IMG/VR virus record: IMGVR_UViG_3300042887_003034
Location: 1-55,341 of that record
Source: a virus
Taxonomy: Duplodnaviria; Caudoviricetes
DNA length: 55,341 bases
Reading direction: 5' to 3' (one strand)
Numbering within the stretch: the first letter of the stretch is position 1; each line of letters begins with the position of its first letter. The position numbers and the translations under genes were made by a program. Shown here piece after piece: positions 3,634 through 28,783 of this stretch. The notes under the pieces were generated by a model. That model ran no database searches and was not told the origin of the DNA. It was given only the letters and a program-made list of their open reading frames with translations.

Positions 3634-3706
3634 CAAGCGGTTGCTAGCACCGCTTGCTGACTGTGTCAACTGTGACCCCCCATGCCCTGGGGAGCCCCAG
3701 GGTCTC

Positions 3707-3991
3707 TCAGATGGCCTCAGCCACCACCGAGGCCGCCGCAGCCCGCTTGGCAGCGCGGGCTTCCCGCTTGCGGATCGCGTCCCGGCTCATGCTCAGCGTC
3801 TTGGCGGGCTTGCTGGGCTTCTGCTCCACGACCACAGCGGCCTCCACGCGGTCCCAGTTGCCCAGGATGTAGGTGCGGGCCAGTTGGCGCTTCATGCCCA
3901 GGGCCATCACCGCGGGGATCAGGCTCACGGCGTCGTTGCCCAGGGCCTTGGCTTGGGCGATCATCTCACGGACTTGCAGTGCCTTGCTCAT
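3707..3991 (-). CDS. Hypothetical early protein; N-terminal domain shared with the C-terminus of the SprT protein at 9524
   Basis: Promoter repeat and AGGAG upstream; SKA..VR..IAQAKA.G...LGM...LA.TY..GNW shared. Confidence 0.75.
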   Translation of the reverse strand: MSKALQVREMIAQAKALGNDAVSLIPAVMALGMKRQLARTYILGNWDRVEAAVVVEQKPSKPAKTLSMSRDAIRKREARAAKRAAAASVVAEAI

Positions 3992-4061
3992 TTGTTGCTC
4001 CTAGTTGCGTTACAGTTCTTGCAGTATAGCACCAGTCAAAGACCCTGTCAACCGCTGGGCT

Positions 4062-4460
4062 TTAGGCCGCAGCCCGGAAAAAGCCGTAGGGCAGGCCGTT
4101 GAGGTAGCACAGGTACTCCCAGTCGCCACCGGCCTCGTCGGCTTCCATGATCCAGCGCAGCGCGGTCTCGCGGTCCTTGGCACCAGCACGGATTGTCTGC
4201 TCAATCCGCTTGCAGAACTTCACCACAGCACGGGCCTCGTCCTCACGGCGGGCACGCTCACCGCGCTCGATCTCCCGCGCCAGGTACTGGAACTCCTCCT
4301 CGAAGTCCTGCTCGGTCCAGTTGCTGGTGTCGATGCCACGCGGGCGGACACCGTGGGCGTCCTTGTACATGTCCCAGTAGGTGCAGGCCATCTGCTCGAG
4401 CACGGTCATCTCTTCCCAGGTCTTGAACTGTTCCATCGTCTGCTCCGTTGCGTTCATCAT
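4062..4460 (-). CDS. Hypothetical phage protein
   Basis: ORF directly under a promoter repeat; YKDAHGVRPR motif; internal GGAG-ATG alternative start. Confidence 0.75.
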   Translation of the reverse strand: MMNATEQTMEQFKTWEEMTVLEQMACTYWDMYKDAHGVRPRGIDTSNWTEQDFEEEFQYLAREIERGERARREDEARAVVKFCKRIEQTIRAGAKDRETALRWIMEADEAGGDWEYLCYLNGLPYGFFRAAA

Positions 4461-4512
4461 GTCAGTAGTATATGATCGAACAAAGACCCTGTCAACCGCT
4501 GGACTTGGGGCT

Positions 4513-4543
4513 GGAGTGCCGGGGCTGTGGCTTGTGTGCCACA
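4513..4543. promoter_or_regulatory. Composite element GGAGTGCCG-N4-TGTGGC-N6-GCCACA (first of at least 8 copies, both orientations)
   Basis: Other copies at 10769-10799, 14502-14532 and 24674-24704 (same orientation) and at 12980-13010, 22121-22152, 23100-23131 and 28654-28684 (inverted). Confidence 0.8.
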
Positions 4544-4551
4544 GCCTAGGA

Positions 4552-5169
4552 TCACACGTACTGCATCTGCCGGGGGCTCAGCGGACGCTGGAACCGGGGC
4601 GCCGGGTCCTGTGCCCAGTCGATGATCTGCTGCCGCAGGCTCTTGCGGAAGCCGCTGCGCAGGTTGCTGGTGATCAGCTTGCTGACCTGCGTCCAGAAGC
4701 CCAGCCCCACAGCATCACGCAGGCGCTCCACCTGTTGGCGGGTCAGCCCTGCCTTGCGGGCCGTGTCAGCATCTTGACGGCGCTGGTTGCGGCGCTGCAG
4801 GACTTGGTTGCGGCGCTGCCGGTAGGCCAGGTAAGCCTTGTACTCAGCCTGCACTTCGGGCGTGGCATCCACCGAGGATGCGTAGCAGGGGTAGCTCCAG
4901 CCGCGGGTGGTGGCGAACATGATCTCGTGGGCGGTGCGGCTCACCGGATCCCACACGGTCATGAAGAAGTCGCTGTCGTCGTACATGTTGCGCTCACGCT
5001 CGGCCACGCACAGCCCGTGGTGCGTGGTGTACAGGGTGTCGCCCTGGCGCTGGTCGTTCATGCCGCTGACGCCGGGCAAGGGGCAGTACTCGCCCGGGTG
5101 GAACTCGGTGCGCAGAGTGCGGGCACCGTTGGAGTAGTCAAAGGAAGAACCCAGGTTGATGATCGGCAT
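4552..5169 (-). CDS. Hypothetical phage protein
   Basis: 205 aa ORF with promoter repeat and AGGAG RBS. Confidence 0.75.
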   Translation of the reverse strand: MPIINLGSSFDYSNGARTLRTEFHPGEYCPLPGVSGMNDQRQGDTLYTTHHGLCVAERERNMYDDSDFFMTVWDPVSRTAHEIMFATTRGWSYPCYASSVDATPEVQAEYKAYLAYRQRRNQVLQRRNQRRQDADTARKAGLTRQQVERLRDAVGLGFWTQVSKLITSNLRSGFRKSLRQQIIDWAQDPAPRFQRPLSPRQMQYV

Positions 5170-5424
5170 CGTCGACTCCTTTGTTTCAGTGTCAGTAGTA
5201 TATGATCGATCAATGACCCTGTCAACCGGTGGGTTATTGCTCCTCTACCTCATGCCACACATCATTCCACGGGTTAGAATCGTCGGCTTCATCGGCGTAG
5301 TCCCACGCAGCCTGCGAAGTTTCAAATTCAGCAACCGCGATCCGAATCACATCTCCGTAGTCCCGAACGCATCTCTTTACAACCCACATCATCTGCTCCT
5401 TGTGGAGGTTCAGTGCCAGTGGGC

Positions 5425-5586
5425 TCAGCCCAGGACCAGCGAGTCCAGTTCCACTTCGACCTGCTGCTGCTTCTGCAGGTCGGCGATCTCCTGCAGTTCG
5501 AAGTTGACTTCGATGCGCACGCCCTCGAGGAACTCAGCCCAGAGGTCCTCGCCGTAGAACTCTTCGCAGGTGATCTCGTCGAACAT
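5425..5586 (-). CDS. Small acidic hypothetical protein (MFDEITCEEFYGEDLWAEF...)
   Basis: Translated by hand; AGGAG and promoter repeat upstream; below the ORF-track length cutoff. Confidence 0.65.
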   Translation of the reverse strand: MFDEITCEEFYGEDLWAEFLEGVRIEVNFELQEIADLQKQQQVEVELDSLVLG

Positions 5587-5844
5587 CGTTTTCTCCTTGC
5601 TACAGTTCTTGCAGTATAAGTTCAGTCAGCAGTCCTGTCAACCGCGCTTGCGATCGTTGATCCACAGCAGGATGCTGGCAATGGTCACAGAGATCACAGT
5701 GACCGCTGTGATGGCCAGGGCAGTGCCCGCAATCACGTAGACCAACAGCAGCAGGTTGTCCAGCATCATCAACTCCTCAGTGTCCTTGCAGTATAAGTTC
5801 AGCGAGCAGTCCTGTCAACCGGGGCTGAAGTGCCCCGGTGTTGT

Positions 5845-6198
5845 TTAATCGCCACGCTTGTCAGTGTTCAGCGAGGGCTTGACAGCACGGCGGATTTCGA
5901 CTTCCCTGCGGTGCGCTTCGGCCTTGCCGCGCACAATCTCGTGGACAACGATCTCGATCTCGTTCTTGTCGTTGAGTTGGCGCAGGGCGGCGCAGAGCGT
6001 CCAGTCCTTGCTCTCAGTCTTGGCGCGGTAGAAGTGCTTGGCAGCACGGGCCCGCACACTCTTCAGCACCGTGCTCTCGGTCTTGGCAGTGACGCCAATG
6101 TAGTTCCCACCTGCGACACGGAGTTCGTAGATGATGTGATTGCGGTCGCTGCGCTTCTTGCGGGTTGCTTGGGCTTCGGTCATCGTGTGCTCCATCAT
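5845..6198 (-). CDS. GIY-YIG-like nuclease domain protein
   Basis: IIYEL...NYIGVT, R..KH and AHRREVEI pattern. Confidence 0.55.
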   Translation of the reverse strand: MMEHTMTEAQATRKKRSDRNHIIYELRVAGGNYIGVTAKTESTVLKSVRARAAKHFYRAKTESKDWTLCAALRQLNDKNEIEIVVHEIVRGKAEAHRREVEIRRAVKPSLNTDKRGD

Positions 6199-6243
6199 GT
6201 CAGTAGTATAGCACCCCTCAATGACCCTGTCAAGTGGTGTGAT

Positions 6244-6627
6244 TTACCAGTTGAACTCGCTGCTCAACCCCAGCGCCTGCTGCTCTTCTGGGCTCAACTT
6301 GGCAAACGCTTGCCGCCGCAGGTTGCGTTGACGCTTCTCTTCACGAGCCTCTTCTTCCTTGATTTCCACACGCCAATCCAACTCATGCAGGGCTTCTTGA
6401 TTCTCCGTAGAGTAGGTCAGAGTCAGCTCTACGGAGCGATCACGGCAGCCGTCACGATCGCTCAGGACGAACTTGGCATCGCGGACAGCCAGTTCCCAGT
6501 TAGTCTTTGTGGCACGCTCTAGCATAGCCATCAGCCGTTGCGGGTAGGTAGCAGCCTGCTCTGCTTGGTATGCAGCTCGCTCTGCTGCTTCACGGGCCAG
6601 TCGTTCTGCTTTGGTTTCGCGTGCCAT
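6244..6627 (-). CDS. Hypothetical phage protein
   Basis: ORF with promoter repeat and RBS. Confidence 0.75.
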   Translation of the reverse strand: MARETKAERLAREAAERAAYQAEQAATYPQRLMAMLERATKTNWELAVRDAKFVLSDRDGCRDRSVELTLTYSTENQEALHELDWRVEIKEEEAREEKRQRNLRRQAFAKLSPEEQQALGLSSEFNW

Positions 6628-6686
6628 TTCGTGTGCTCCTTGCTGCTATGTCTGTACTATAGCACCCCTCAAAGACCCTGTCAACC

Positions 6687-7091
6687 TTAGGGCTTTTGGT
6701 GGCACAGGTCCACGGATTCGGAGTAGTAGCCGTTGGACTCGCCCAACCAACGAACGTCCACATAGCCCTTACGGGTAGCGAACTTGTAGAAGGTAAAGGT
6801 GTAGGACTCGAACATTTCGTCCTCGATGTCTGCAGGCACTTCACCTTGAACTTCTTCGGCGATCAGCAAGGGCTCACCTACCAAGTCCTCGAGATCACCA
6901 ACGATGTCGTTGATGTCCACAGACTCACAGCAGGACTGGAAGTGGGTGAACACAAAGCGCTCGCCGTTCTGATCAACGAACACCATCTCACCCGAGCCCA
7001 CCGAACCTTCTACACGAACGAAGGTACGACCAACCATCGAGCGCAGACCTTCTTGGGTATCAACCATATCGTTCCAGTTCAGTTCCATCAT
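6687..7091 (-). CDS. Conserved hypothetical phage protein (HxQxCCExV, WLGESNGYYSE)
   Basis: ORF with promoter repeat and RBS; motif recalled from phage proteins. Confidence 0.75.
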   Translation of the reverse strand: MMELNWNDMVDTQEGLRSMVGRTFVRVEGSVGSGEMVFVDQNGERFVFTHFQSCCESVDINDIVGDLEDLVGEPLLIAEEVQGEVPADIEDEMFESYTFTFYKFATRKGYVDVRWLGESNGYYSESVDLCHQKP

Positions 7092-7155
7092 CTGCTCCTG
7101 TTTGCTTACTGTTCTTGCAGTATAAGCTCAAACAAAGACCCTGTCAAGTGGTGGG

Positions 7156-9460
7156 CTATCGACCGATTGTTTGCTGGCGCTTGAGCAGAGCCCGTTCAGC
7201 GTCAATCAGCGTTTCCACACGGTTGATCAGGTCAACGTAGTAGTCCGAACGATGACGGGCATGGGTCAGCCGTTGATCAAGATCAGCACACTGTTCCAGG
7301 CTATACCGAACACCCAAAAGGGTGTCAATCAGATCGTCCCGGCTGTTAAAGGTAAGATCGCTCATTTCAGCACTCCCCGCGATAGACGACTTCTTGGACA
7401 CCGTAGGGCATGAAATAACTGGCCCGAACCAGTTCTTCGGCATGTTGCTCGTCTTCGGCACGAACTCGCACATAGTCGACAAAGGTGCCCTGATCATCTT
7501 CGCATTCGAAGAACACATCGTAGAATCCCAGAACTGCTTGGTCCATCTCGTCTGCTCCTTGTTTCGCTATGTGTGTATTATACGGCAGGATGGATCAGGT
7601 GTCAACTCCAGATGCGATTTGGGATTTATTGTCAAATCTTCTTTACCTTGCCGAGAACCGGATCGTTGGCAATGTAGCCCTTGTAACCGTTGTCCATATC
7701 CCGGGCGGAACCAAAAGTGTAGATCATTTTGTTGTCGTCAGGGCGAACAAAGACCCATTCGAAACTGCTGTTCTTTACGGTGTAGACCACACTTCCTTCG
7801 TAGAACCTACGGAAAGCATACTCGACCCGAACACGATCACCAGCAGAGAAAACTTGATTCATTTCTTGCTCCGTTATCTAATCAATCTTCTTAGATAGAG
7901 GCCACAGCAGTCAGTGCCACTACGGTCCAAATTGCGATAAGTTGAGCGATGCCAAAGTAGAACAGGGCCCAAACAACAGTACAAAATCCGATCAGTTTCA
8001 GCATGGTCAGCTCCTTAGTGTTCTTGCAGTATAGCACCAAACAAAGACCCTGTCAATCAACCTTTGGGATCAACAGAGTCTTACTCCATAGAAAAATTTG
8101 ACCTATCGGAATGCGCCATGCCGTGTCTTCAAGAATCTCAAAGACCACTGTCTCAGCGGCGTTGTCTACCTTGTATGGACGAAAACGACCTTTTGAACCT
8201 CGGATGATATGCTGTGCCGCTTCATTACTGATCTCCATCAGCATGATGCCGTTTTCGTCCCGAACAATATAACCCACCGTGTGCTCCTTGCTGCGATGTC
8301 TGTACTATAGCAGGAAACAAAGACCCTGTCAACCTCTGAGCTATTTTCTCAGGATGCGTATCTAGTGCGCTCGTACTCGATGTCTCGAATCATCTCGAAG
8401 GCTTGCTCGCAGTCGGCATTCACCTCATCTACGGTCTTTTCATAGATAAAGGCAATCTCACTGCAGGGGACCACATTGTGGTAATCATAGGCGCCGCCCA
8501 TGTAGGCATCATAGATCCTGCGGCCCGCCCGTTCAATGACTGCTTGATAGGTTTTCATCAACGCTCCTTCAGACGCTTCATCACTGCCACAGCCTCGGGG
8601 CTGTTCATAATCTCGCGGAACTTAACTTTGGGATCGTACCACTCACCGGTCTTGCGATCCTTGACCCAGCCCATGTCTTCGCGGAGGTTGGCGGCAAGGC
8701 CTTCTTCCCGGGCCTCACGCTGCTTGGCCCACTTTGCTTCTTGCTTCTTGCCCCACTTCATGGTCTGCTCCTTGCTGCGATGTCTGTACTATAGCAGGAA
8801 ACAAAGACCCTGTCAAGTCTCGGCTCTTTGGTTCTTGATCTTTTCAAGCGCCTACGTAGATTGCAGTCAACCGCAAAGCCAAACTCAGCGCAAAACAGAC
8901 GATACCAAAAATGGAGAGTATCTGTTCAACTCCAGGTTTGGCTTTAGTTGCCCACGCGGTCAGAAAAATGATTCCAACGAGATTGAATATCGAGAGGGCG
9001 AATTCGAAAGTAGTCATGATTTACTCCTTGCTGTCTTGCTTGCTCAGTTCTTGTTCACAGTGGTGTGGCTCTTGAACAGGAGACCGCAGAGGAACAGTAG
9101 ACCCCAGGCTTGGAACCAGGTAATCTCCGGCAGTCCGAAGATCGTAGGCATGAGCCAGTCCCAGAGCAGCATCACGGGCAGACTCATCAGAGCCGCCACA
9201 ACGAACAGAACGAGGATACCACCAACGATAAGACCGATTACGTTCATTTCGAACTCCTTGTTGCGATGTCTGTACTATAGCAGGGATCAAAGACCCTGTC
9301 AACCGAGCGAGTAAGTGTCGCCTCGGCGCACGCCGATCTTGTCCAGCAGGCCGTCGATGACCGTTTGGGACACCACAGCCCGGCCTTCGACGAACCGAGC
9401 GTTAACCAGGTACGAGTACTTGCGGCCGTTGTAGCGGATAGAAACAAAAACCTTCTTCAT
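7156..9460 (-). CDS. Run of about 10 small hypothetical genes (e.g. 7156-7365, 7632-7862, 8053-8277, 8349-8561, 8558-8761, 9044-9247 membrane)
   Basis: Short minus-strand ORFs, each with AGGAG and mostly with a promoter repeat; ATGA overlaps. Confidence 0.65.
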
Positions 9461-9523
9461 TTGGCACTCCTAGTTGCGATGTGTGTATTATAGCGTAGGG
9501 CCTGAACCCCGTCAACTTTTGAT

Positions 9524-10258
9524 TCAGGCCTTGTGCCAATTTCCAGCCACGTAGGTCTTGGCCAACGACAGCGACATCCCCAGCACGGTGACTGCGAAGT
9601 TGACCACCACCGAACTGCCTTCGCCGCGAGCCTTGGCCTGCGCGATACGAGCCCGCACAAGAGCAGCCTTGCTAGCACCCTCGGGCTTCTGAACCGGCTT
9701 CTGAACCGGCACTCCCGTGGTCACAGGCTTTACGGTCTGCACCGGCTGCTCTCCAAGCAGGCTGTAGGCGCTGCTGATGTTGATTGCACCCTTGCCGTCA
9801 CGGAAGCGGTAGACCACACCGCTCTGCACCTTGCGATGACGGGTGGCACTGAGGTGAACAGTGGCCCCGGTGCTGGTGGTGTAGACGTAGGTTTCGCCCT
9901 TGGCGTAGACGACCTTTTCCTTGTGGTAGGTTTCGCCACTGCCGCCCAACCACTGGCAGGTACGGCGCCAGGCCCAACCGTGACCGCGATCGCTGCCGTT
10001 GGCAAAGCAGATCACGTGCGCCAGTTCGTGCGGCACGGTGTCCTTGAAGAGGTGATCCCAGGCCTCGTTCTGCATCATGTCGGTGTTGAACCGCATGAAG
10101 TAGTTCCAACCGCGGCGTCCTGCAATGCCGGCACTGCGACCACGAAGATCGAAACGCACATCGATCTGCGGGATCTTTTGGCCGGGGTGCCCTGCTTCGT
10201 ACTTGGTGATCAGTTCTGCAATCTTGGCACGGACCTGGGCGATGCGCTCTTGAAGCAT
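9524..10258 (-). CDS. SprT-like zinc metalloprotease domain protein
   Basis: LRGRSAGIA, TVPHELAHV (HExxH) and HGWAWRR; start after AGGAG. Confidence 0.85.
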   Translation of the reverse strand: MLQERIAQVRAKIAELITKYEAGHPGQKIPQIDVRFDLRGRSAGIAGRRGWNYFMRFNTDMMQNEAWDHLFKDTVPHELAHVICFANGSDRGHGWAWRRTCQWLGGSGETYHKEKVVYAKGETYVYTTSTGATVHLSATRHRKVQSGVVYRFRDGKGAINISSAYSLLGEQPVQTVKPVTTGVPVQKPVQKPEGASKAALVRARIAQAKARGEGSSVVVNFAVTVLGMSLSLAKTYVAGNWHKA

Positions 10259-10308
10259 TTCAACTCCTTGCTGCAATGTCTGTACTATAGCAGGAGTTGG
10301 AGAGCCTG

Positions 10309-10686
10309 TCAACCGAACTTCTTCAGAATCGGCAGCAGCGCCTCGACCAGTTCGTAGTCCTCGCGAAGCACCGCCTCGCTGGTCAGCGCACGGAGGCTGT
10401 CCACAGCCGAAGTGCGATGCTGGTTGACCTCCACCAACAGACCCATCACTCGCAGGTCACGCACGGCACCGTCGAAACGCTCCTGTGCAGAGACCAGCAG
10501 GCCCGTGGCGTAATCCTCGCGCGCCTCACACTGGATCGCGATCTTATGCACGCCGGGCACTTCGCTGAGGTCCTTGGCATCCTTGAGCCCGAGATTGGTC
10601 AGCGTCCGGAGTGTCTTGATCACTGCGATCTTGTTGATCTGGCCGTAGTCGTTGGGAAAGTTGACGGTGATGCTCTTGGGGATCAT
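10309..10686 (-). CDS. Protein with a ribosomal protein bL12 (L7/L12) C-terminal-like domain
   Basis: NKIAVIKTLRTLTNLGLKDAKDLSE matches the bL12 signature KxxVIKxVRxxTGLGLKEAKDLVE. Confidence 0.7.
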   Translation of the reverse strand: MIPKSITVNFPNDYGQINKIAVIKTLRTLTNLGLKDAKDLSEVPGVHKIAIQCEAREDYATGLLVSAQERFDGAVRDLRVMGLLVEVNQHRTSAVDSLRALTSEAVLREDYELVEALLPILKKFG

Positions 10687-10807
10687 TTCATTTACTCCTG
10701 AATGCGTTTTGCAATGTCTGTACTATAACAGGGAACAAAGACCCTGTCAACTGGTGAGACTTGGGTATGGAGTGCCGATGATGTGGCAGAAATGCCACAT
10801 CATCTGT

Positions 10808-11113
10808 TTAGGCAATGCCTCGCGTATCCGCTACTTCGAAGTGGAGACTCAGTTGCGGTTCCGAGTTCTTGAACTTGTGAATCCGTGCAACGAATCCGCC
10901 TGTGGAGCAGGAAGTGGATTCACCTTCTTTCTCGTAGAGTCGAATCGCAGCGTGAATCATTTCCAGCGCAGTGGCCTGCAGTTCTTCCACAGTGGGGACG
11001 GTCGGGGTCCACCACCAGGTCCAGTTCAGCGCGGTCATGACCTTTTGAACTCGATCCCACTCGAATCGTTCCATGATGTCAGCAGTTTCAGCGATCCAGG
11101 TCTTGCTCATCAC
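10808..11113 (-). CDS. Hypothetical phage protein
   Basis: ORF with promoter repeat and RBS. Confidence 0.7.
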   Translation of the reverse strand: MMSKTWIAETADIMERFEWDRVQKVMTALNWTWWWTPTVPTVEELQATALEMIHAAIRLYEKEGESTSCSTGGFVARIHKFKNSEPQLSLHFEVADTRGIA

Positions 11114-11161
11114 GTGCTCCTTGTTGCAATGTCAGTAGTATAGCGCCGAACAATGACCCTG

Positions 11162-11649: not shown

Positions 11650-11650
11650 A

Positions 11651-21719: not shown

Positions 21720-21797
21720 CTCGCGCTCCTGTGTTAACAAGTCAGCAGTATAGCACTACACTTGCGCATCGTCAAGTGTAGTGCCCGTGCCACAGTG

Positions 21798-22061
21798 TTA
21801 CAGTCCTTGCTCAATTAGCCGCGCAACATCCGCCTTGTAGTGCTTGTCGCGTATAGTGTACAGCACATTCCAATTGTCATCGCACAGTAGCAAGTCCTTC
21901 GTCACTTTGTCGCGCATGTAAGCGCCATAGTGTTCGCCAAGCCACCAATCTCCGTGTGCCCATTCGCCTTCAAGTTCAAGTCGCACTTTACGCTTTTTGC
22001 TAGCATACACTGCGCCCGCATTGCTCTCTTTTGCAACAAAGTCTTTGTCCGTCGTTTGCAT
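21798..22061 (-). CDS. Hypothetical protein
   Basis: ORF with promoter and RBS. Confidence 0.65.
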   Translation of the reverse strand: MQTTDKDFVAKESNAGAVYASKKRKVRLELEGEWAHGDWWLGEHYGAYMRDKVTKDLLLCDDNWNVLYTIRDKHYKADVARLIEQGL

Positions 22062-22153
22062 TTTGCTGCTCCTTTGTGTTAGTGTGCAAGCATTATAGCA
22101 CTATGCACAAAAAAAGCAAGTGTGGCGTATTAGCCACACCCCCCGGCACTCCC

Positions 22154-22420
22154 TCAGTAGTCGCCCAGATCGTACTGGTCCTCGTAGGACGAATCCAGGT
22201 AACTGTCCTCGCCGCCCTCGGGCTCGTAGGGCTCGTCGTGATCACGCTCCAGGCTGTCGTGATGATAGCCTTGCTCGTACTGATCATCCATGATGTGATC
22301 AGCGGCTTCGTAGACCCAGCTCAGAGGCACGTCATACTTCTGAGCGATCTGATGATAACTCAGTTCGCCTCGGAGGATTTCGTCTTGCAGGTCCATTTCC
22401 AAATCACTGATACGGCTCAT
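22154..22420 (-). CDS. Highly acidic small protein
   Basis: D/E/Y-rich C-terminus. Confidence 0.7.
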   Translation of the reverse strand: MSRISDLEMDLQDEILRGELSYHQIAQKYDVPLSWVYEAADHIMDDQYEQGYHHDSLERDHDEPYEPEGGEDSYLDSSYEDQYDLGDY

Positions 22421-22485
22421 CGTCGGCTCCTTTGTTGCAATGTCAGCAGTATAACAGGGGCCAAAGCCCCTGTCAACTGCTATGT

Positions 22486-22698
22486 TCAGGCCAGCACCTC
22501 GCGGATGTTGTGCAGCGACACCATCTCCACCTGCCGGGGGCCCACCTGGACACCGATAGCGGTCCAGGTGCTGTTGCCCACCTTGACCACACGCTTCTCG
22601 GTGACCATGCCCACCTCAAAACTCAGCGGACGGCGCTCCTTGTTGAAGCGACCCAGTTGAACAACGGAACCCGGGGTAACAGCAGCGAACTTGACCAT
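22486..22698 (-). CDS. Hypothetical protein, copy 1 of a duplicated cassette
   Basis: Near-identical to 27538-27750, including flanks. Confidence 0.8.
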   Translation of the reverse strand: MVKFAAVTPGSVVQLGRFNKERRPLSFEVGMVTEKRVVKVGNSTWTAIGVQVGPRQVEMVSLHNIREVLA

Positions 22699-22788
22699 TT
22701 TGTGCTCCTTTAGCAGTTAGGTCGTTGGGGGAAACTTGTTTAAGTGTCAGCAGTATAACAAAGTTCAAAGACCCTGTCAACCGCTGTG

Positions 22789-24605
22789 TTATTGTTGCTC
22801 TTGTTCGAACTCGGCGATCATCTGCTCGGCCAGTCGCCGGTGCTGAGCACTGGAGGTATGCACCAGGCCGACATAGTGACCGAAATCGTTGCAGCCGATC
22901 TCAGTGACACGAGCCCGCTTGGCGCCCAAGCGATGCAGCAGATCTTCGATCTGCTTGAACTCGTGATAATCGGAAACTTCGACGGTCGTGGGCAACTTGA
23001 TCGTCAGTTCGGTGTCGGTTTTGATCTTCATCACACAGTCCTTTGCTACAGTTCTTGCAGTATAAGTTCTTTGAAAGACCCTGTCAAGTGGCGGGGTAAT
23101 GTGGCATCACTGCCACACCCCCCGGCACTCCCTCAGTAGTCGTCTCCTGCGGAGCCGTAGTCCTCGTCAGTACCCCAGCCCGCGGAGGCCAGCGCGGAGG
23201 CGTGATCACCGTCCATGCTGTCGTTGTACTCGCCCTCACGCTCTATCTCGTCCTGCAGTTCTTCGCTGAGGTTCATGAAGTCCTCGCAGGTGTTGAACAG
23301 TTCCTGGAAAGCACGCCGCTCGTCCTTGTGCATCTCCAGCAGGAACTGCGGGCCCTCTTCCCGCATAGCGTCGATGATCTGACGCATGGCCAGCAGGGTG
23401 TTGTTGCACATGCAGTAGCTCATGTTCGGGAAGTTGCTCATCTCGCGCTCCTTTGTTACAGTTTCAACAGTATAAGCTCAAACAAAGACCCTGTCAACTG
23501 GTGGGTCTTTAGACGTATACCTTGCAGATGCGCACTGCAAAGGCACGGCGCTTGGCATAGGGCATGGCGCGGTATTCTGCACTCTCATCGTACATACGGT
23601 CGCAGATGTAGTCTGCAAGGCTTTCAGCACACAGGGGTTCACCTGCTCCAGCACAGGCCTGCTCGAGGTCGTAATAGACTTCGTTGATGATCCTACGAAT
23701 TTGCTGTTCCATACTTGCTCCTTTAGCGTTGGTGCAGTATAACAGGGACCGAAGTCCCTGTCAACTGGTGGGGCTTTACAGCCGCTTCCAGCCCATTGAA
23801 GCGCAGAGGTAGTCCTGGCCGTTTACGTTGACGATATCGCCCACGCTGACGCTGCGGAAATGACCCCAACGCTCCTCGCGCTCTGCTTGCCGGCCGGGAT
23901 TGTTGGTAAGGTCGAAAATCTCCTCAGCAGCAGCCTCGCCCTGAAGTTCAGTGACCACACAGGGACCGGTCCTGCGGTAGTGACCCTCTGCAAGCAGACC
24001 GCGAGCAGTGGCTTCCTGGTCCTTGCGGAAGTAGAACTCGCCCATGAACTGCTCGTTGACCAACTTCACCGCTGCAATCATCGCTGACTCCTTTGTTACA
24101 GTTCTTGCAGTATATCGTCAGAGCAAACTCAAGTCAACCGTAGGGACTTTGAACAGGTCTTCTTCGTCCAAGAGCAGAACTTCGGCAGTCCTGCCAAAGA
24201 CCTCCATGGGCTTGTCCAACTTGACCGTGTGCTGAACAGTGCCGCCGTACTTGACACGGCTTTCGGTAACCAGCCCACTGACAGCATAGGCCTGCAGGTA
24301 CATGCCTGCAACTCGTTGACCTTCACGGTTCCACATTATTCCACCTCACAAAGGTTGATACGATACATCTGATTGTAGTGGTTCTCGTGCATGATCACGT
24401 AGGGGCCGTAGTCGTACACGGGCAGACCATTGCTGCGAGCGCACCATTCCATGTCGGTGACACTGGAATTGCTACGACTGATTCGAGTCCAGCCTGCGTT
24501 CTTGTTGCTGGCCCGCATGCCAACCATTGCACCCTTGCGGGTCTTGTAGCGAGCCAGCACATCGGGCTTGCCTCCCTGATTGCGACACAGTAGTACGTAG
24601 GACAT
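22789..24605 (-). CDS. Run of hypothetical genes (22789-23034, 23133-23441 acidic, 23509-23712, 23776-24081 YodL-like RSVSVGDIV, 24118-24336, 24336-24605)
   Basis: One promoter repeat per gene or gene pair. Confidence 0.65.
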
Positions 24606-24712
24606 CGCGTTCTCCTTAGTGTTTTTGCAGTATAGCAGAACTCAAAGACCCTGTCAAGTCTCGGGCTATGGGCGGAGTGCCGGAGGTGTGACATTGCTGC
24701 CACACCGTTGGA

Positions 24713-25285
24713 TTACTGATTAGATTCTTCGTCAGCCCGGGCTTCTTCTTCCCACTGAGCCATATTTTCGGAGATAGCAAATTGCTCGTCGACATCTGAG
24801 TCGATCAAACTGGAAACCGTTTCGGCGGTCATGTCACTGAGGTTCCAGAAATCGTCTAAGCCGTTGATCCAGCGACCGCAGAAAGCCATGCCGGGCTCGT
24901 AATACATGGCATCAATATCAAAACCCATTTCTACGAGTTGAGCATAAGCCCCAATGGGAGGCGACCAAGCACTATCGAAGAAAGCGCTGATCGAATTGTC
25001 GTCCATACGCTCGATACCTCCAAGTTCAATATCCCACTTGGTACCCCAATTGGCCACATTCCAATCATACCAGTCCTTGTATCCAAACTGTTCGAGGTTG
25101 GCTGCTTGTTGTGCAGCCTGTGCGGCTTGCTTGTCCTCACCGGGATAGCCTACAACAGTTTCTGTCAAGGGCTCAGGAGTCGGAAAGAATTCCATAAACA
25201 GCCCGTCCTTGCCTTTGAGCACTCGCTCAATCATGGCCGGATCTTTGTGACGAATCTGAATAAAGTTATTGCACCAATTAGGCAT
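24713..25285 (-). CDS. DUF1281/YubB ferredoxin-like domain protein
   Basis: MPNWCNN start, WYDWNVANWGTKWD, FDSAWSPP and YYEPGMAFCG. Confidence 0.7.
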   Translation of the reverse strand: MPNWCNNFIQIRHKDPAMIERVLKGKDGLFMEFFPTPEPLTETVVGYPGEDKQAAQAAQQAANLEQFGYKDWYDWNVANWGTKWDIELGGIERMDDNSISAFFDSAWSPPIGAYAQLVEMGFDIDAMYYEPGMAFCGRWINGLDDFWNLSDMTAETVSSLIDSDVDEQFAISENMAQWEEEARADEESNQ

Positions 25286-25439
25286 TTCAGTTCTCCTCAG
25301 GAAGGTAGGCTTCAAGCACACTGTCGGGCAGATGTGCAATCAGTTCTTGGATTGCGGTCATATCCCCATTGTCAACATCTCGTGCAATCTGCTCGAGCAC
25401 ATCGTCTAGCAACTGTTCGCGAATGGTCTTGGCCATAGT

Positions 25440-26872
25440 TTACTCTCCTACACGATCGTAGAAAGCGGTCTCAACAAACTTGTAGATCTGATCTTTGCTG
25501 CCCCAGGAATCAGCAGGCATCTGGTTGTAGACATACCGGACAATGTCAGGCAGGGCAGCAAGGTTCTCGCTGTCTGCACGTCCCACAGCACCGAACAGAT
25601 CGTTGCTGAGTACAGCCATCAAGAAGCCGCCGGGCAGCATCTTGTGCTCGACATAGCGGTCCAGGGCGGCCTTAGTGTGTGCTGGAATCATCGTCGGCTC
25701 CTATGTGTTACTGTTCTTGCAGTATAGCGTCAAGCAGCGGCGCTGTCAACCGTTCAATCAGTAGTGACTGCGGTTGCCCACATAGTTGAAGTCGTCCATG
25801 GGATCGGACTCTTCGTCCGGCAAGCCCACAAGTTCAAGCAGATCGTTCTTGCGAACAAACTCCTCAACGTCTGCTTCGCTCATCCAGCCCACGAGATCGT
25901 TGATCAGATTGTCCTTGTCAAACAGACCCTGTTCCACTGCGCTGAGCAGGGCATGACTGAAAACACGACTACGGCGGTAATTGCTCATCACTGGCTCCTT
26001 TGCAATGCCTGTACTATAACAGGGAACAATGACCCTGTCAAGCACGAACCATCTTAAACCCTGCGGCCTTCAGTACTTGTATCGCACGAGCGCAGTCATC
26101 GTCGATGGTGTTGTCTCGACTATAAATTGCATCGTTGAAGATGTCAGCGGCATCGCGGGCCCAGTTGGACAACTCCTTGTATCCTGGGACGGACATAAGT
26201 ACTTCGTCAACTTCCTCAATGTCCCAATACTCGTAGGGTTCATCCAAAAACTGTTGGCCATATTTCTGCACATAGGTGCAGATGAGATTTCGAAACAGGG
26301 AGTTTGCAGCCAGTGCTTGACTGAGATCATCGAGATCAAGACCAATGAAATCAAATAACTCGATATACTCATGATCTTGAGAAAAATCTTGGTAATGCTC
26401 ATCCCTGAATCTATCTGCAACAGTTTCTGCCACTGTTTCGACTTGCTCGGCACTGACAATAGTTTTGACAACAAGATCTTTCATTTTCAACTCCTATATT
26501 GAATTAAACGGCGGGCTTGCCCGACTCGACATCAACTTCAACAGTGACGTCGCTTAAACGGCCGTCAACGTCATATTCCAAACGCCGCACTCGTGCAGTG
26601 ACTCGGGCATTGCGCAGATACTGCAACATCTTTTCTTTGAAATACTCAAAATGATCTTCAAATGTGTCAGCGGCCTGTTCGCTGAGATTTTGAAATACCC
26701 GCTCAATATCGTCCTTGGACTTATACTCGTCAAACATGTCGACGACCATGTCAGTATTGCCCTCTGCCATGTCAACGATCATCAAAGTGGCCATTTTGCG
26801 AATGGCATCGTCGCTGCCGTAAAGGGCGTCGCGGGTTTTGACAGTTTCAATGCCGCTTTGAAAAACAATCAT
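25440..26872 (-). CDS. Hypothetical genes 25440-25691, 25758-25988, 26038-26490, 26504-26872
   Basis: ORFs with RBS and promoter repeats. Confidence 0.65.
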
Positions 26873-27034
26873 TTCACGCTCCGTTGTGTGTCAGTGTGTC
26901 TACTATAACAGGAAACAAAGACCCTGTCAAGTCTCGGGTTAAAGATGAGCAGCCGTCACGGCTTTCTGCTGCTCTCCCCCCGCGCCCGGGCCTTCCCGGA
27001 TTGTCCGAACCATCCGATGTGTGGGGGATAAATT

Positions 27035-27118
27035 TGGTGGAGTGTGATGGATTCGAACCACCGTGCTGTTAGGACCTGATTTACAGTCAGGCGCAATCGA
27101 CCACTCTGCCAACACTCC
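27035..27118 (-). tRNA. tRNA-Tyr(GTA)
   Basis: GGAGTGT acceptor, anticodon loop CTGTAAA, long variable arm, GTTCGAATC, CCA end. Confidence 0.92.
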
Positions 27119-27219
27119 AAATCTTTACCATAGTTCAGCACACTGCCCGCGCCCGCAAGCCCGGCATATCTACCAATACGTCTGACTGTGGTAGCAGTCA
27201 GTGCTAATGCGCTGAACTA

Positions 27220-27294
27220 TGGTAGGAGCACAGGGATTCGAACCCTGGACCAACGGATTAAAAGTCCGCTGCGCTACCGCTGCGCCATACTCCC
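27220..27294 (-). tRNA. tRNA-Lys(TTT)
   Basis: GGGAGTA acceptor, anticodon loop CTTTTAA, GTTCGAATC, CCA end. Confidence 0.92.
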
Positions 27295-27537
27295 AAGTTC
27301 TTTAAATCTCCAAACTCTCCAGTTCAGTGGCCCGTTGCAGATCTGCCACAACCTGGCACTCTGCGTTCACAAGCCAAAAGCCCCGACCTTCTTCGATGTC
27401 ACGGAGCCGATTGTACTCGTACTCGAACTCCATGATATCGTCTTGTGTCATGTCTTCTGGATACCACATGCTCTGCTCCTTGCTGCTCACTGTGAACACA
27501 GTATAACAGGGGACAAAGCCCCTGTCAACTGCTATGT

Positions 27538-27750
27538 TCAGGCCAGCAACTCGCGGATGTTGTGCAGCGACACCATCTCCACTTGCCGGGGACCCACCTG
27601 CACGCCAATAGCGGTCCAGGTGCTGTTGCCGATCTTGGTGATCTCCTTGCTGACCACCATGCCCACCGAGTGGCTCAGGGGACTGCGATCCTTGTTGAAG
27701 CGACCCAGTTGGACCACGGAACCCGGGGTAACAGCAGCGAACTTGACCAT
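27538..27750 (-). CDS. Hypothetical protein, copy 2 of a duplicated cassette
   Basis: Paralog of 22486-22698. Confidence 0.8.
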   Translation of the reverse strand: MVKFAAVTPGSVVQLGRFNKDRSPLSHSVGMVVSKEITKIGNSTWTAIGVQVGPRQVEMVSLHNIRELLA

Positions 27751-27845
27751 TTTGTGCTCCTTTAGCAGTTAGGTCGTTGAGGGAACGTTGTGTTTCAATG
27801 TGTCTACTATAACAGAACTCAGAGACCCTGTCAAGTGCTGGGTCT

Positions 27846-28130
27846 TTACATGCTCCAGTAAGTCTCACTGCTGGGACTGCAGAAGTAGGGCACATCGTAG
27901 CGCTCCCAGAACTGCACACCAGAGATGTGGTTGACTCGCAGAACCAAAGTTTCAAAGAACTCCAAGCGAAACTGGTCCTTGGGATACTGGCCCGAACTGC
28001 GCAGGTACATGACCAAGTCCATCATAGCAGTACCAGAGTAACCTGGATAATCCTGCTTGCTGACTAACTTTTCACCAGTGCGGCAGCGCCGATCCAGTTT
28101 GTAGATTTCCAGTGTATAGCCTTGTTGCAC
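27846..28130 (-). CDS. Hypothetical phage protein (PYFCSPSSETYWSM C-terminus)
   Basis: ORF with promoter repeat and RBS. Confidence 0.7.
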   Translation of the reverse strand: MQQGYTLEIYKLDRRCRTGEKLVSKQDYPGYSGTAMMDLVMYLRSSGQYPKDQFRLEFFETLVLRVNHISGVQFWERYDVPYFCSPSSETYWSM

Positions 28131-28192
28131 CTTCTGCTCCTAGCGTGTTACTGTTCTTGCAGTATAACAGAGTTCAAAGACCCTGTCAACTA

Positions 28193-28573
28193 CTAGAGAT
28201 TGTAGGGAAAGGTCAACTCCCAAACAGCATAGTGGAACAAGGGCTCGGGACCCATAGGATCAGCACCACCCAAATAAGTGTACTTGGCAATGTTGTCATT
28301 GTGTCTCAATATGCCTTCTACATCGCTGATCAAAAAGTCATAGGACTTTTTGTCCCTTTGCAGTGCAAGATTGTCAATGTGAACTTCCAAATGTGCTTTG
28401 AATTCGTTGACCCATTTTGTAGTAATTCTATAGTGTTTGGCTTTGAAAGCCCTGGGAAACTCTCGAGTAATTGCACTAATACTGTGCTTGAGAGCCCGTT
28501 CTTTTCTAGGAGAAACCTTTGTAGGTTCTGTGATTTCGTTTAGTCGCATTAGATTCACCTCGTCTGTTGCCAT
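28193..28573 (-). CDS. Hypothetical protein
   Basis: Lower-GC ORF; TAAATA immediately upstream; possible true start MRLNEITE. Confidence 0.6.
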   Translation of the reverse strand: MATDEVNLMRLNEITEPTKVSPRKERALKHSISAITREFPRAFKAKHYRITTKWVNEFKAHLEVHIDNLALQRDKKSYDFLISDVEGILRHNDNIAKYTYLGGADPMGPEPLFHYAVWELTFPYNL

Positions 28574-28783
28574 TATTTATTGCAGTCTACGAACTTAATT
28601 GCAGTGTGAGCCAAGTATAGCACTAGTCGCTGACGCTGTCAAATTCTGAATTTTGTGGCATCTCTGCCACACCGCCGGCACTCCGCCTGTGGCTTCTCCG
28701 CCACGATCGTTGTGAATCTGCCACTGTTGTGAATCCGCCACTGTTGTGAATCCGCCACGATCAACTGCAAACGCGAATCTGTC

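Follow-up and report, generated by a model that had tools for sequence, protein, structure and literature searches.

Promoter units as candidate homology patches in a 25-kb small-gene array of an uncultured jumbo phage

Organization of the array

The window analyzed here, the whole 55,341-nt stretch of DNA, is a fragment of an uncultured jumbo phage, with a contig completeness of 15 % (CheckV). Between 4023 and 28642, a 25-kb array contains 47 credible promoter units, all co-oriented on the minus strand (Table 1). The units head 28 one-gene, 14 two-gene, 4 three-gene and 1 four-gene cassettes, for a total of 72 genes with a median product length of 77.5 aa (at most 100 aa in 52 of the 72), and three tRNA genes lie inside the array. 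This agrees with the earlier note, which described about 50 promoter-headed cassettes of one to four tiny co-oriented genes. The array genes gave no indication of host takeover or anti-defence.

The count of units rests on a generic σ70 scan of both strands of the window (TTGACA with at most one mismatch, 16–18 nt, TAyAnT). The minus strand has 53 sites, 50 of them within 3650–28710, and the plus strand has 8, only 2 of which are in that interval. Requiring a 17-nt spacer leaves 48 sites. One of these, a CTGACA match at 26119..26147 on the minus strand, lies inside gene 26038–26484, heads no gene and was judged spurious, leaving 47. A separate promoter scan found 51 promoter-like sites in 3300–23000, against 16.1 ± 3.8 in shuffles.

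In 2-kb windows, GC content is 0.43–0.60 in the array and 0.29–0.46 in the flanks. Among cassettes GC ranges from 0.39 to 0.68 and GC3 from 0.38 to 0.88, and the GC3 differences between cassettes are real. The GC-rich island and its heterogeneous cassettes are thus as first described, but the island-wide excess is a clade-wide property of the array, and so does not by itself show the separate acquisition that had been read from it. The GC step, from ~0.30–0.45 to 0.43–0.60, would also be expected had a GC-rich stretch been misjoined to an AT-rich phage contig during assembly. Such a chimera is scarcely credible, as an independent contig, L018, spans window positions 1–7817, array/flank boundary included, at 99.3 % identity, and the same GC step and architecture are found in the relatives G001, G003 and G005, and at dozens of loci.

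Table 1. Features of the array. Exact and mismatch refer to the start of the spacer; TG is the extended −10.
Feature	Position	Strand	Unit characters	Genes and remarks
Whole array	3707..28642	-		47 co-oriented units, 72 small protein genes, 3 tRNA genes
Unit	28614..28642	-	divergent spacer	28193-28549
Unit	28161..28189	-	GGGTCTTTG exact, leader A, TG	27846-28130
Unit	27806..27834	-	1 mismatch, leader E, long leader	27538-27750, paralogue of 22486-22698
Duplication copy B	27499..27791	-		90-94 % identical to copy A, 5052 nt apart
Unit	27500..27528	-	1 mismatch, spacer palindrome	27302-27469, then tRNA-Lys and tRNA-Tyr
tRNA-Lys (ttt)	27220..27294	-		within cassette of unit 27528
tRNA-Tyr (gta)	27035..27118	-		
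Unit	26902..26930	-	exact, leader E	26504-26872, 26038-26484
Unit	26013..26041	-	1 mismatch, leader B	25758-25991
Unit	25721..25749	-	divergent spacer, leader A	25440-25691, 25287-25436, 24713-25285
Unit	24629..24657	-	exact	24336-24605, 24118-24336; upstream hairpin and GGCACTCC box
Unit	24109..24137	-	divergent (TTGACT), leader A	23776-24081
Unit	23736..23764	-	2 mismatches, 10-bp spacer palindrome	23509-23712
Unit	23469..23497	-	exact; -35 enclosed by 9-bp stem AAAGACCC/GGGTCTTT	23133-23441
Unit	23059..23087	-	1 mismatch, leader A	22789-23031
Unit	22752..22780	-	exact, leader D, long leader	22486-22698
Duplication copy A	22447..22739	-		distal leader, gene, next promoter as far as -10
Unit	22448..22476	-	1 mismatch, 10-bp spacer palindrome	22154-22420, 21798-22061
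Unit	21747..21775	-	divergent (TTGACG), leader D	21249-21719
Unit	21181..21209	-	exact, leader A	20876-21151
Unit	20829..20857	-	2 mismatches, leader A, spacer palindrome	20623-20805, 20387-20626, 20174-20320
Unit	20143..20171	-	TATAAT, spacer palindrome	19647-20111, 19465-19650
Unit	19227..19255	-	divergent, long leader	18731-19171, 18119-18388
Promoter-like site	18415..18444	-	18-nt spacer, TTGACC...TATAAT	just before 18119-18388; outside the 47
Unit	18001..18029	-	exact, leader B	17717-17974, 17523-17705
Unit	17494..17522	-	exact, leader A; spacer kept by orthologues in 4 relatives	17256-17468, 17059-17259, 16859-17062
Unit	16823..16851	-	ATAAATC class, dominant in G003 and G005	four low-GC genes, 16072-16790
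Unit	16027..16055	-	exact, leader A	15810-16001
Unit	15785..15813	-	exact, leader A	15598-15759, 15227-15601
Unit	15202..15230	-	divergent (TACAAT)	region with tRNA-Arg and 14535-14720
tRNA-Arg (tct)	14752..14826	-		
Unit	14456..14484	-	1 mismatch, leader C	14255-14425; upstream hairpin and GGCACTCC box
Unit	14230..14258	-	1 mismatch, leader C	13975-14067, 13737-13985
Unit	13712..13740	-	exact, leader A	13421-13681, 13173-13424, 12967-13176
Unit	12942..12970	-	exact, leader A	12593-12910
Unit	12557..12585	-	TATAAT, spacer palindrome	AAA ATPase 11651-12526 (most conserved array gene), 11162-11431
Unit	11137..11165	-	1 mismatch, leader C	10808-11113
Unit	10722..10750	-	exact, leader B	10309-10686, related to L7/L12-CTD-like extra gene of L018
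Unit	10284..10312	-	divergent, leader B	SprT-like protein 9524-10258
Unit	9487..9515	-	TTGACG, TATAAT; -35 enclosed by 10-bp stem	9299-9460
Unit	9274..9302	-	exact, leader B	9044-9247, 8844-9017
Unit	8788..8816	-	exact, leader B	8558-8761, 8349-8558
Unit	8304..8332	-	exact, leader B	8053-8277
Unit	8028..8056	-	exact, leader A	7891-8004, 7632-7862
Unit	7577..7605	-	full consensus TTGACA-17-TATAAT, unrelated spacer	7367-7546, 7156-7365
Unit	7119..7147	-	exact, leader A	DUF7448 protein 6687-7091
Unit	6656..6684	-	exact, leader B	6244-6627
Unit	6205..6233	-	1 mismatch, leader C; spacer 3' half as in unit 6684	5845-6183
Unit	5790..5818	-	GGACTGCT spacer, leader A	5638-5769; G4/C4 hairpin 5818-5839 directly upstream; site of 435-nt indel versus L018
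Unit	5613..5641	-	GGACTGCT spacer, leader A	5425-5586, 5234-5392
Unit	5197..5225	-	1 mismatch, leader C	4552-5169 (GC3 0.88)
Unit	4467..4495	-	exact, leader C	4062-4436; upstream hairpin and GGCACTCC box
Unit	4023..4051	-	exact, leader A	last array gene, 3707-3991

The promoter units

The core of the unit is TTGACA, 17 nt and TATAcT, mostly with an extended −10 TG (33–34 of the 47 units, about 70 %); an A follows 7 nt further on, and after it a short leader and AAGGAG. An A is present at +35 in 44 of the 47 units, the −10 box lies 20–35 nt from the start codon in 41, and a C-rich patch at −8 to −6 from the −35 box forms part of the ~55-nt unit. The 5′ leader of ~15–30 nt carries AAGGAG and is followed by the start codon; the intergenic spacers, ~60–90 nt, are mostly made up of the unit. 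The A 7 nt past the −10 box is probably the transcription start. Judged by sequence, the units have every feature expected of strong early promoters for host RNA polymerase, along with translation signals.

Copies of the unit far exceed chance, as follows. TTGACAGGGTCTTTG, with up to three mismatches, has 38 matches versus 2.03 ± 1.45 in shuffles (largest 6), and 34 of these lie on the minus strand, from 4037 to 28189. One minus-strand match, at 7748, is not a promoter. With at most one mismatch, the same search gives 31 matches in reverse orientation and none in forward, and a reversed control pattern gives 0. The quoted core is found in 33 units within two mismatches (21 exact, 10 with one, 2 with two). 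The unit proposed in the earlier note is therefore present in numbers, but it needs correction in that it lies on the minus strand, has TATACT or TATAGT as its −10 box, and has a leader of at least three families, not one.

Conservation beyond the needs of σ70, also proposed at first reading, is clearest at the start of the spacer, where the 9-mer GGGTCTTTG is common, within one mismatch, to 31 of the 47 units. Position by position, 32–40 of the 47 units agree in the 9-mer after the −35 box, and the information content, 0.93 bits per position versus 0.50 over the next 8 nt, gives it a sharp boundary. Stems of at least 8 bp occur in or adjoining 19 of 48 units, versus 7.8 % of control windows; G/C-tract stem-loops lie in or beside many units, 13 units have a palindrome across the spacer, and a GTGGCA..TGCCAC hairpin with a GGCACTCC box recurs upstream of several. 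The folding energy of the units is the same as that of control windows (−9.4 vs −8.9, p = 0.31), and canonical intrinsic terminators show no enrichment (25 vs 19.6 ± 4.5). This placement of stem-loops around the −35 and −10 boxes matches the PeSL cassettes of T4-type phages, whose stem-loops, according to the 2010 PeSL paper, lie between the two boxes or overlap them, and the comparison with PeSL cassettes was an apt one.

It is tempting to see in the 9-mer, at about −29 to −21, and in the TGACAGGG...CCCTGTTA palindromes the sites of a co-evolving phage-encoded regulator, either an activator or a repressor that shuts off early transcription, with this functional conservation lying atop any recombination role. 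The sharp bounds of the 9-mer, its pairing with all leader classes, the spacer-spanning palindromes and a weak GcrA-like Pfam hit in one array protein fit such a regulator, as does the expansion of different 9-mers in other lineages (ATAAATCC in G003 and G005, AAACCATTT in L073). We nevertheless regard it as unlikely. No candidate factor was found: neither the window nor G001 matched MotA, AsiA or sigma70-r2, the MotA and AsiA searches being run without a positive control. Moreover, the 9-mer is missing from 14 of the 47 units, and in L053 it is not the spacer that is homogenized but the leader together with a GCCACA upstream, which drifting conversion tracts would explain better than a single conserved operator.

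Plasticity among relatives

The array’s ATPase is encoded by at least 589 related viral contigs. At 80 sampled loci, 818 promoter sites are co-oriented and 38 are on the opposite strand, and 43 of the 80 have at least 10 such sites, that is, the same array type; in these and all other locus counts, the loci are phylogenetically non-independent. In three relatives the arrays measure ~7 kb, ~13 kb and 28 kb or more. A homologue outside the window’s own strain was found for 49 of the 72 array genes, and L053 has 24 genes in common with the window, 14 of them colinear. Relatives differ greatly both in which genes the array contains and in their order.

Neighbours stayed adjacent in 9 of 240 cases where a promoter lies at the junction, versus 14 of 133 where none does, a window-wide test that is weak, as is the comparison by junction (3/38 vs 5/21; Fisher p = 0.12; one-sided Mann-Whitney p = 0.04). 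A single pair of junctions gives a sharper difference: 23 of 66 loci show an interruption or rearrangement at the promoter-bearing n47|n48, and 0 of 75 an interruption at the promoter-less n48-n49 (Fisher p = 2e-9). Junction n26-n27, promoter-less under the 17-nt rule, is variable in 23 of 44 loci, but it is not a clean control because the 18-nt-spacer site 18444 and an uncalled ORF lie there.

The units themselves are homogenized within lineages. One 9-mer occupies 66 % of the window’s units, versus a median of 11 % over 77 loci, the strongest case in the clade. Orthologues of GGGTCTTTG-headed genes have a promoter of the GGGTCTTTG class in 10 cases, of other classes in 34, and none within 110 nt in 27.

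Recombination at the units

Comparison of 11 related pairs gave 25 events with 100 breakpoints, of which 30 fall within −30 to +70 of a −35 start, versus 7.0 % of random positions, an enrichment that alone cannot separate a recombination preference from selection for intact genes since nearly all intergenic DNA is unit. Between relatives, the array is hyperplastic. Three single-cassette indels have an in-register hybrid unit, in the pairs L109/L110, L083/L087 and L075/L085, where the overlap in the alignments is 37, 15 and 20 nt, respectively. The crossovers sit in stretches of plain identity whose position varies between the −35/spacer, the −10 and a combination of −10 and start region. In the window, a 340-nt internal duplication starts inside the upstream unit’s leader and stops immediately after the downstream unit’s TATACTG. 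The units are also mosaic, as the spacers TGGTGC and TCCTGC are combined with leaders A and B in all four ways, and neighbouring units are the more similar (0.658 vs 0.615, permutation p = 0.0011).

The alternative is that the units are only strong early promoters, with breakpoints and homogeneity due to selection, for intact genes and for the best promoter for the host, rather than to recombination. The make-up of the intergenic spacers and the weakness of the window’s adjacency test are consistent with selection. So are the indels between close strains. The only one separating the window from L018, of 435 nt, contains one gene without its own promoter; with one end on a stop codon and the other ~16 nt upstream of a −35 box, it is not unit-to-unit. 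Two further micro-indels in near-identical relatives lie inside genes. Selection alone, however, does not predict the hybrid units, and it is also opposed by the duplication that halts exactly after the −10, by the mosaic segments, and by the identical 9-nt spacer of 21 units, which is unlikely to have arisen through independent point mutations. We judge this explanation improbable. That the units are recombination anchors, as the earlier note held, is borne out by the hybrid-unit indels, duplication and mosaicism, though not by the indel between the window and L018; comparison with relatives shows that the units also serve as portable homology patches.

Integron-like capture, in which a dedicated recombinase would recognize stem-loops in or near the units as with attC sites, is disfavoured and very improbable. 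The excess of stems and the recurrent upstream hairpin would suit it. However, neither the window nor the complete 383-kb relative G001 has a PF00589 integrase hit, as the phrase “without an integrase” in the earlier note had it; each cassette has its own promoter, which integron cassettes lack; and the crossovers follow plain identity at no fixed position.

Proposed role of the array

We propose, as the likely explanation, that this is an early-gene hyperplastic region of a jumbo phage with a genome of ~370–380 kb, distantly placed within the T4 superfamily, and that the region is built from PeSL-type cassettes whose units would be both promoters and portable homology patches. Upon infection, unmodified host σ70 RNA polymerase would fire all array promoters simultaneously, yielding many short early mRNAs, mono- to tetracistronic. 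For PA5oct, a cultured relative, dependence on host RNA polymerase and TTGAC/TATAATA promoters are reported. That the units might also titrate host RNA polymerase, as the earlier note suggested, is purely speculative. Recombination between two units, mostly within the −10 to start region, is seen on comparison with relatives to delete, insert, duplicate or relocate a cassette, and each gene retains a complete promoter. The phage’s RecA/UvsX-type system probably carries it out; a RecA-family gene (RecA-type recombinase) is present in G001. Repeated exchanges or gene conversion may then have spread one unit variant through the array of this lineage.

The observation with which this analysis began is confirmed and its interpretation is, overall, partly supported, the PeSL-like reading being largely borne out in silico. 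Cassette shuffling through promoter recombination has already been described in T4-like phages, with RB49-like frequencies of ~1e-5 per cassette in the 2010 PeSL paper. The mechanism itself is thus known, and the window’s array would be an extreme case of it.

Organization of the Promoter Units

When up to three mismatches are allowed, the motif TTGACAGGGTCTTTG has 38 matches in the window, as against 2.0 ± 1.5 in shuffled sequences. At one mismatch or fewer, 31 copies are found, on the reverse strand only, and the reversed control pattern gives 0. A generic sigma70 scan yields 53 sites on the minus strand, 50 of which are within 3650-28710, versus eight on the plus strand, two of which are within that segment. 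In a separate promoter scan, 51 promoter-like sites were counted, versus 16.1 ± 3.8 in shuffles. Sites with a 17-nt spacer number 48, one of which is intragenic and heads no gene, leaving 47 TTGACA-17-TATAnT units on one strand. The array of about 50 promoters described in the earlier note is real, and its strand is the minus strand.

The units are laid out as follows. The upstream consensus is AAAAnCCCAnCAG, and a C occupies positions -8 to -6 from the -35 box in 26-30 of the 47 units. A 9-mer directly follows TTGACA, each of its positions being kept in 32-40 of the 47; it reads GGGTCTTTG exactly in 21 units, with one mismatch in 10 and with two mismatches in two, and the other 14 units have other spacers. 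Next comes a variable patch of about five positions and then an extended -10 TG, present in 33-34 units; the -10 box itself is TATAcT or TATAgT. The A seven nt past the -10 is nearly invariant (44 of 47 units), and we infer that it is the transcription start. The leader is short and carries an AAGGAG-type Shine-Dalgarno (SD) sequence, and in 41 units the start codon is 20-35 nt past the -10. The -10/leader regions group into family A (TATACTGCAAG, 16 units), family B (TATAGTACAG, 8 units), family C (TATACTACTGA, 6 units), and families D and E, with 5 units jointly; the remaining 12 units have other leaders.

Cassettes and Their Gene Products

The 47 units head 72 protein genes, with one gene in 28 cassettes, two in 14, three in four, and four in one. 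The encoded proteins have a median length of 77.5 amino acid residues. Cassettes range in GC from 0.39 to 0.68 and in GC3 from 0.38 to 0.88. Two minus-strand ORFs, 18441-18659 (72 residues) and 14833-15195 (120 residues), fall in gaps of the promoter-anchored gene map, from which they are missing because they are without a scored SD; the figure of 72 genes may be a slight undercount. An Rfam search found three tRNAs and nothing else. Since these tRNA genes lie within early cassettes, they are presumably transcribed from the promoters of those cassettes.

Pfam matches were obtained for about eight of the 72 array proteins at most, namely an AAA ATPase, a SprT-like protease, DUF7448, an L7/L12 C-terminal-like domain, a weak GcrA-like match, and a few others. 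The proteins match 22 PHROG families, none with an assigned function except one labelled 'membrane protein'. For nearly all of the array proteins, Pfam and PHROGs provide no function. GcrA, the cell-cycle regulator to which one array protein is weakly matched (3.8e-05), is an alphaproteobacterial sigma70-associated regulator, and the match might be a clue to the host or point to a transcription factor. The match of one of the 72 proteins to Pfam Ribosomal_L12 is at 9e-09. A strain that is 99.3% identical to the window over window positions 1-7817, L018, has at its positions 1975-2373 a gene that is missing at window 5834/5849. The product is a 132-residue protein with a segment like the L7/L12 C-terminal domain (TIGR00855, 1e-05, below the cut-off). 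Within the window, its distant paralogue is at 10309-10686 on the minus strand (41% over 54 residues). These L7/L12-like early phage proteins resemble the ribosomal stalk domain.

The Phage and Its Clade

The window, an IMG/VR record in its entirety, is rated 15% complete by CheckV, which for 55,341 nt indicates a fragment of a genome of about 370 kb. Its DnaB-type helicase has its nearest counterparts in two jumbo phages, PA5oct (54% amino acid identity) and Atu_ph07 (52%), and a complete relative of 383 kb, G001, has a capsid gene of the Gp23 family of T4 (1.3e-82). A megablast search of positions 3650-12000 against GenBank phages gave no match. The flanking genes encode a helicase, an AlgH-like protein, a 5'-nucleotidase, a 2OG-Fe(II) oxygenase, a ligase, and a block of radical-SAM proteins. 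The last of these regions, 34944-43563 on the plus strand, is the window's block of lowest GC, at about 30%. It contains tandem paralogues of the 'twitch domain-containing radical SAM protein' (NF033640), with four full-length matches and one partial match. A further copy is apparently split at 37223/37232 between the C-terminus of a 759-residue ORF (model positions 1-231) and the next ORF, of 189 residues (model positions 235-397).

The exact unit is found in 34 further viral contigs. The ATPase gene is the most conserved of the array, with relatives in at least 589 contigs. Across 80 sampled loci (1.21 Mb), 818 promoter-like sites are co-oriented with the ATPase gene versus 38 on the opposite strand, and 43 of the 80 loci have at least 10 such sites. 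Thus, the promoter array is a hallmark of a large uncultured clade. Arrays vary in extent. That of the relative G003 spans about 7 kb and has 10 promoters; the figures are 13 kb and 23 promoters for G001, and at least 28 kb and 26 promoters for G005. In contrast, the consensus promoters of the jumbo myovirus-type genomes that are the nearest cultured relatives by helicase are scattered: the 287 kb of PA5oct contain 22 forward and 7 reverse hits, and the 490 kb of Atu_ph07 contain 12.

The GC content of the array is 0.43-0.60, that of the flanks 0.29-0.46. The earlier note took this island-wide excess, together with the GC differences among cassettes, to suggest separate acquisition. Since array GC is above flank GC in all three of G001, G003, and G005 as well, the excess is a property of the clade's early region and no sign of recent import.

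Evidence for Recombination between Units

A homologue outside the window's own strain was found for 49 of the 72 array genes. Among relatives, the array is very plastic in gene content and in gene order, in line with the earlier note; the best array-level relative, locus L053, has 24 genes in common with the window, of which only 14 are colinear. Synteny breaks across the window show a weak trend in the predicted direction, that is, they favor promoter junctions. Adjacency of window genes is only very rarely kept in relatives, in 9 of 240 cases at promoter-bearing junctions versus 14 of 133 at promoter-less ones or, counted by junction, at 3 of 38 versus 5 of 21 (Fisher p = 0.12; one-sided Mann-Whitney p = 0.04); here and in the comparisons of loci below, the loci are phylogenetically non-independent. 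The widely conserved genes n47 and n48 meet at a promoter-bearing junction. In 23 of 66 loci this junction is broken up or rearranged, and up to 14 promoters lie between the two genes; the promoter-less junction n48-n49 is interrupted in 0 of 75 loci (p = 2e-9). The n26-n27 junction, which the 17-nt rule classes as promoter-less, varies in 23 of 44 loci; it is a poor promoter-less control, having a promoter-like site with an 18-nt spacer at 18444.

Breakpoints in the clade are enriched in the units. In 25 gaps from 11 related pairs, 30 of 100 breakpoints lie within -30 to +70 of the start of a -35 box, versus 7.0% for random positions. Moreover, three pairs of loci differ by the presence or absence of a single cassette (L109/L110, L083/L087, and L075/L085), and in each the arrangement is as follows. 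The long form reads unit 1, leader 1, gene, unit 2, leader 2. The short form has one hybrid unit, made of the upstream part of unit 1 and the leader of unit 2. The crossover falls in 12-37 nt of common sequence that covers the spacer and -10, the -10, or the -10 plus the start. Selection for intact genes might be thought to place breakpoints between cassettes, but by itself it would not predict hybrid units joined in register; these are what homologous recombination between units would be expected to produce.

Probable traces of recombination between units are also found in the window itself. A 340-nt block, consisting of the distal part of a leader, a gene for a 70-residue protein, and the next promoter, occurs a second time 5 kb away, the two copies being 90-94% identical. 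The similarity starts inside the leader of the upstream unit and breaks off abruptly past the TATACTG of the downstream one. The spacer ends TGGTGC and TCCTGC are each found both with leader A and with leader B, which gives all four combinations of these unit segments. Adjacent units are more similar than random pairs (0.658 versus 0.615; permutation p = 0.0011).

The only indel counted between the window and L018 is of another sort. It comprises 435 nt with the L7/L12-like gene, which is without its own promoter. One of its ends is at the upstream gene's stop codon, and the other is within a hairpin/GGCACTCC element, about 16 nt before a -35 box. At the strain level, this event did not join one unit to another. 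Downstream of the last array gene, at 3562-3615, is a further small difference between the window and L018, of about 50-70 nt. In the near-identical loci L014, L038, and L042, a tandem duplication of 53 nt and an indel of 124 nt are both intragenic. For the window, then, the proposal of the earlier note that junctions lie in the units holds for the internal duplication and fails for the L018 indel. Its broader reading, a shuffleable library of early genes, is largely right where testable in silico, with the L018 indel, the two intragenic micro-indels, and the variable n26-n27 junction on the other side.

Homogenization of the Units

The units of the window are the most homogeneous of the data set: 31 of 47 (66%) have one 9-mer, versus a median of 11% over the 77 loci having at least eight units. 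Orthologues of the window genes headed by GGGTCTTTG have a promoter of the same class in 10 cases and one of a different class in 34, and 27 cases lack any promoter within 110 nt, these being counts of gene-by-distinct-unit pairs, which are non-independent. An orthologue may retain its leader with the -35-proximal part of the spacer swapped, as for the genes at 14255-14425 and 4062-4436. Other variants are expanded in sister lineages, ATAAATCC in G003 and G005 and AAACCATTT in locus L073. In L053 (810-16698), the homogenized parts are the leader, ACTTGAACACTAACACAACGGAG, and an upstream GCCACA; its spacers are dissimilar, with GC-rich palindromes frequent among them.

The pattern of homogenization fits repeated exchange, or gene conversion, from unit to unit, and it leaves room for a lineage-specific factor that would read the 9-mer. 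Profiles of MotA (PF09114) and AsiA (PF09010), the proteins behind the middle promoters of T4, have no match in the window or in G001, the positive control likewise being without a match, and a search for sigma70 region 2 found nothing. One may suppose, further, that the 9-mer would serve as a 'private' promoter code, with GGGTCTTTG as the version of the window and ATAAATCC or AAACCATTT as those of the sister lineages, which a lineage-specific phage factor would read in addition to the sigma70 consensus. Each lineage could then turn its whole early library on or off as one block, and incoming cassettes would be domesticated by gaining the resident 9-mer through unit-to-unit recombination. We consider this private code unlikely. 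If it existed, regulation and gene capture would be coupled through one 55-nt element.

Stem-Loops, Terminators, and a Second Small Repeat

A contiguous stem of at least 8 bp is present at 19 of the 48 sites versus 7.8% of 2000 control windows, and one of at least 7 bp at 26 of 48 versus 21.7%. The mean folding energy of the units is no lower than that of controls (p = 0.31). A universal stem-loop around the -35 was considered and rejected, since only a subset has one and the stem in the window is mostly of 4 bp (20 of 48 sites). Among 292 distinct units of the clade, 15 have a stem of at least 7 bp around the -35, with arms AAGACCC/GGGTCTT and ATAACCC/GGGTTAT. Canonical intrinsic terminators are not enriched between cassettes (25 versus 19.6 ± 4.5).

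Directly upstream of several units is a second small repeat, a hairpin of the GTGGCA-N4-TGCCAC type with a GGCACTCC box or its complement on opposite sides. It has 17 matches versus 7.5 ± 2.5 expected, and one copy adjoins the L018 indel. The repeat could be a terminator-like or a mobile palindromic element.

Coordinates of the tRNA genes and of copies of the second small repeat
Feature	Position	Strand	Context
tRNA-Arg (tct)	14752-14826	-	within early cassette
tRNA-Tyr (gta)	27035-27118	-	within early cassette
tRNA-Lys (ttt)	27220-27294	-	within early cassette
Hairpin/GGCACTCC repeat	4508-4520	-	
Hairpin/GGCACTCC repeat	5822-5834	-	
Hairpin/GGCACTCC repeat	10764-10776	-	
Hairpin/GGCACTCC repeat	14497-14509	-	
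Hairpin/GGCACTCC repeat	24669-24681	-	
Hairpin/GGCACTCC repeat	near 23124		inverse orientation
Hairpin/GGCACTCC repeat	near 28677		inverse orientation

Proposed Mechanism

We propose that the host sigma70 polymerase would fire all the units at the onset of infection. Beside this may be set PA5oct, which is reported to depend on the host RNA polymerase and to have 32 TTGAC/TATAATA promoters. Recombination between units moves cassettes in the clade, judging from the compared junctions, and presumably does so in this genome. The profile of the tyrosine integrases, PF00589, has 0 matches in the window and in the complete G001, the control being matched in 14 of 14 genomes; the likening of the array to an integron 'without an integrase' is in that respect borne out. 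G001 does have a gene for a RecA-family recombinase, which fits homology-driven exchange. Like an integron, the array is one-directional and made of small exchangeable cassettes. An integron, however, has an IntI-type tyrosine recombinase, promoter-less cassettes under one common promoter, and a fixed recombination site, whereas here PF00589 has no match in the window or in G001, each of the 47 cassettes has its own promoter, and the junctions in the clade are at stretches of homology.

Relation to the PeSL Cassettes

The closest known system is that of the promoter-early stem-loop (PeSL) cassettes of T4-type phages. These are described as near-consensus sigma70 promoters with an SD and start codon, in hyperplastic regions, with recombination between units (Arbiol et al. 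2010, PMC2839356). In the same paper, promoter and terminator activity and mini-circles are reported from experiments on the PeSLs of RB49 and phi1, and the concept was later extended to T4/PST and KVP40/nt-1 (Comeau et al. 2014, PMC4122927). Most of the sequence-level features of PeSLs are present in the window. Both have a near-perfect sigma70 promoter with a 17-nt spacer, units whose 3' end carries the SD and the start codon, and a concentration among small ORFans in hyperplastic regions. The stem-loops of PeSLs, with G-tract and C-tract arms, lie between the -35 and -10 or overlap them; such a stem-loop is clear in only about 40% of the window's units. Cassette indel junctions within units are common to PeSLs and the window's clade, and for neither is a dedicated recombinase known.

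The differences are as follows. The region upstream of a PeSL is AT-rich, whereas that of the window's units is C-rich. The window has one contiguous 25-kb array in which 47 units, all in one orientation, follow each other at about one every 0.5 kb, and one 9-mer is common to 66% of them, with a dominant variant that differs between lineages. The T4-like subfamily from which PeSLs are described is distant from PA5oct and Atu_ph07, the nearest by helicase, and the window's phage is in an uncultured jumbo clade, of which the complete relative G001 has the capsid gene of the Gp23 family. Finally, the activities in RB49 and phi1 are experimental, whereas the window is known from its sequence.

In SPO1 and T5, too, clusters of host-takeover genes and early promoters have many strong host-type promoters before small early genes. 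In phage 'morons', likewise, a gene moves together with the signals for its own expression. We know of no report of a comparable homogenized repeat unit, or of unit-to-unit junctions, for SPO1, T5, or the morons. In the limited library of literature searched, no description of PeSL-type arrays in jumbo phages or in this clade was found. To our knowledge, modular shuffling mediated by PeSLs is documented only in a few cultured T4-like phages.

The array is thus of the PeSL kind, in an extreme form, and not of a new kind; the concept is unchanged, its range is extended, and its statistics are improved. The array also offers dozens of compact, probably very strong promoter/leader parts and about 70 uncharacterized early proteins for screening. 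It is the PeSL architecture in its most extreme form, with 47 units in 25 kb, two thirds of them with one spacer, in a clade of at least 589 contigs. The natural variation of that clade supplies recombination junctions at nucleotide resolution, a ready data set for the turnover of early-gene repertoires.
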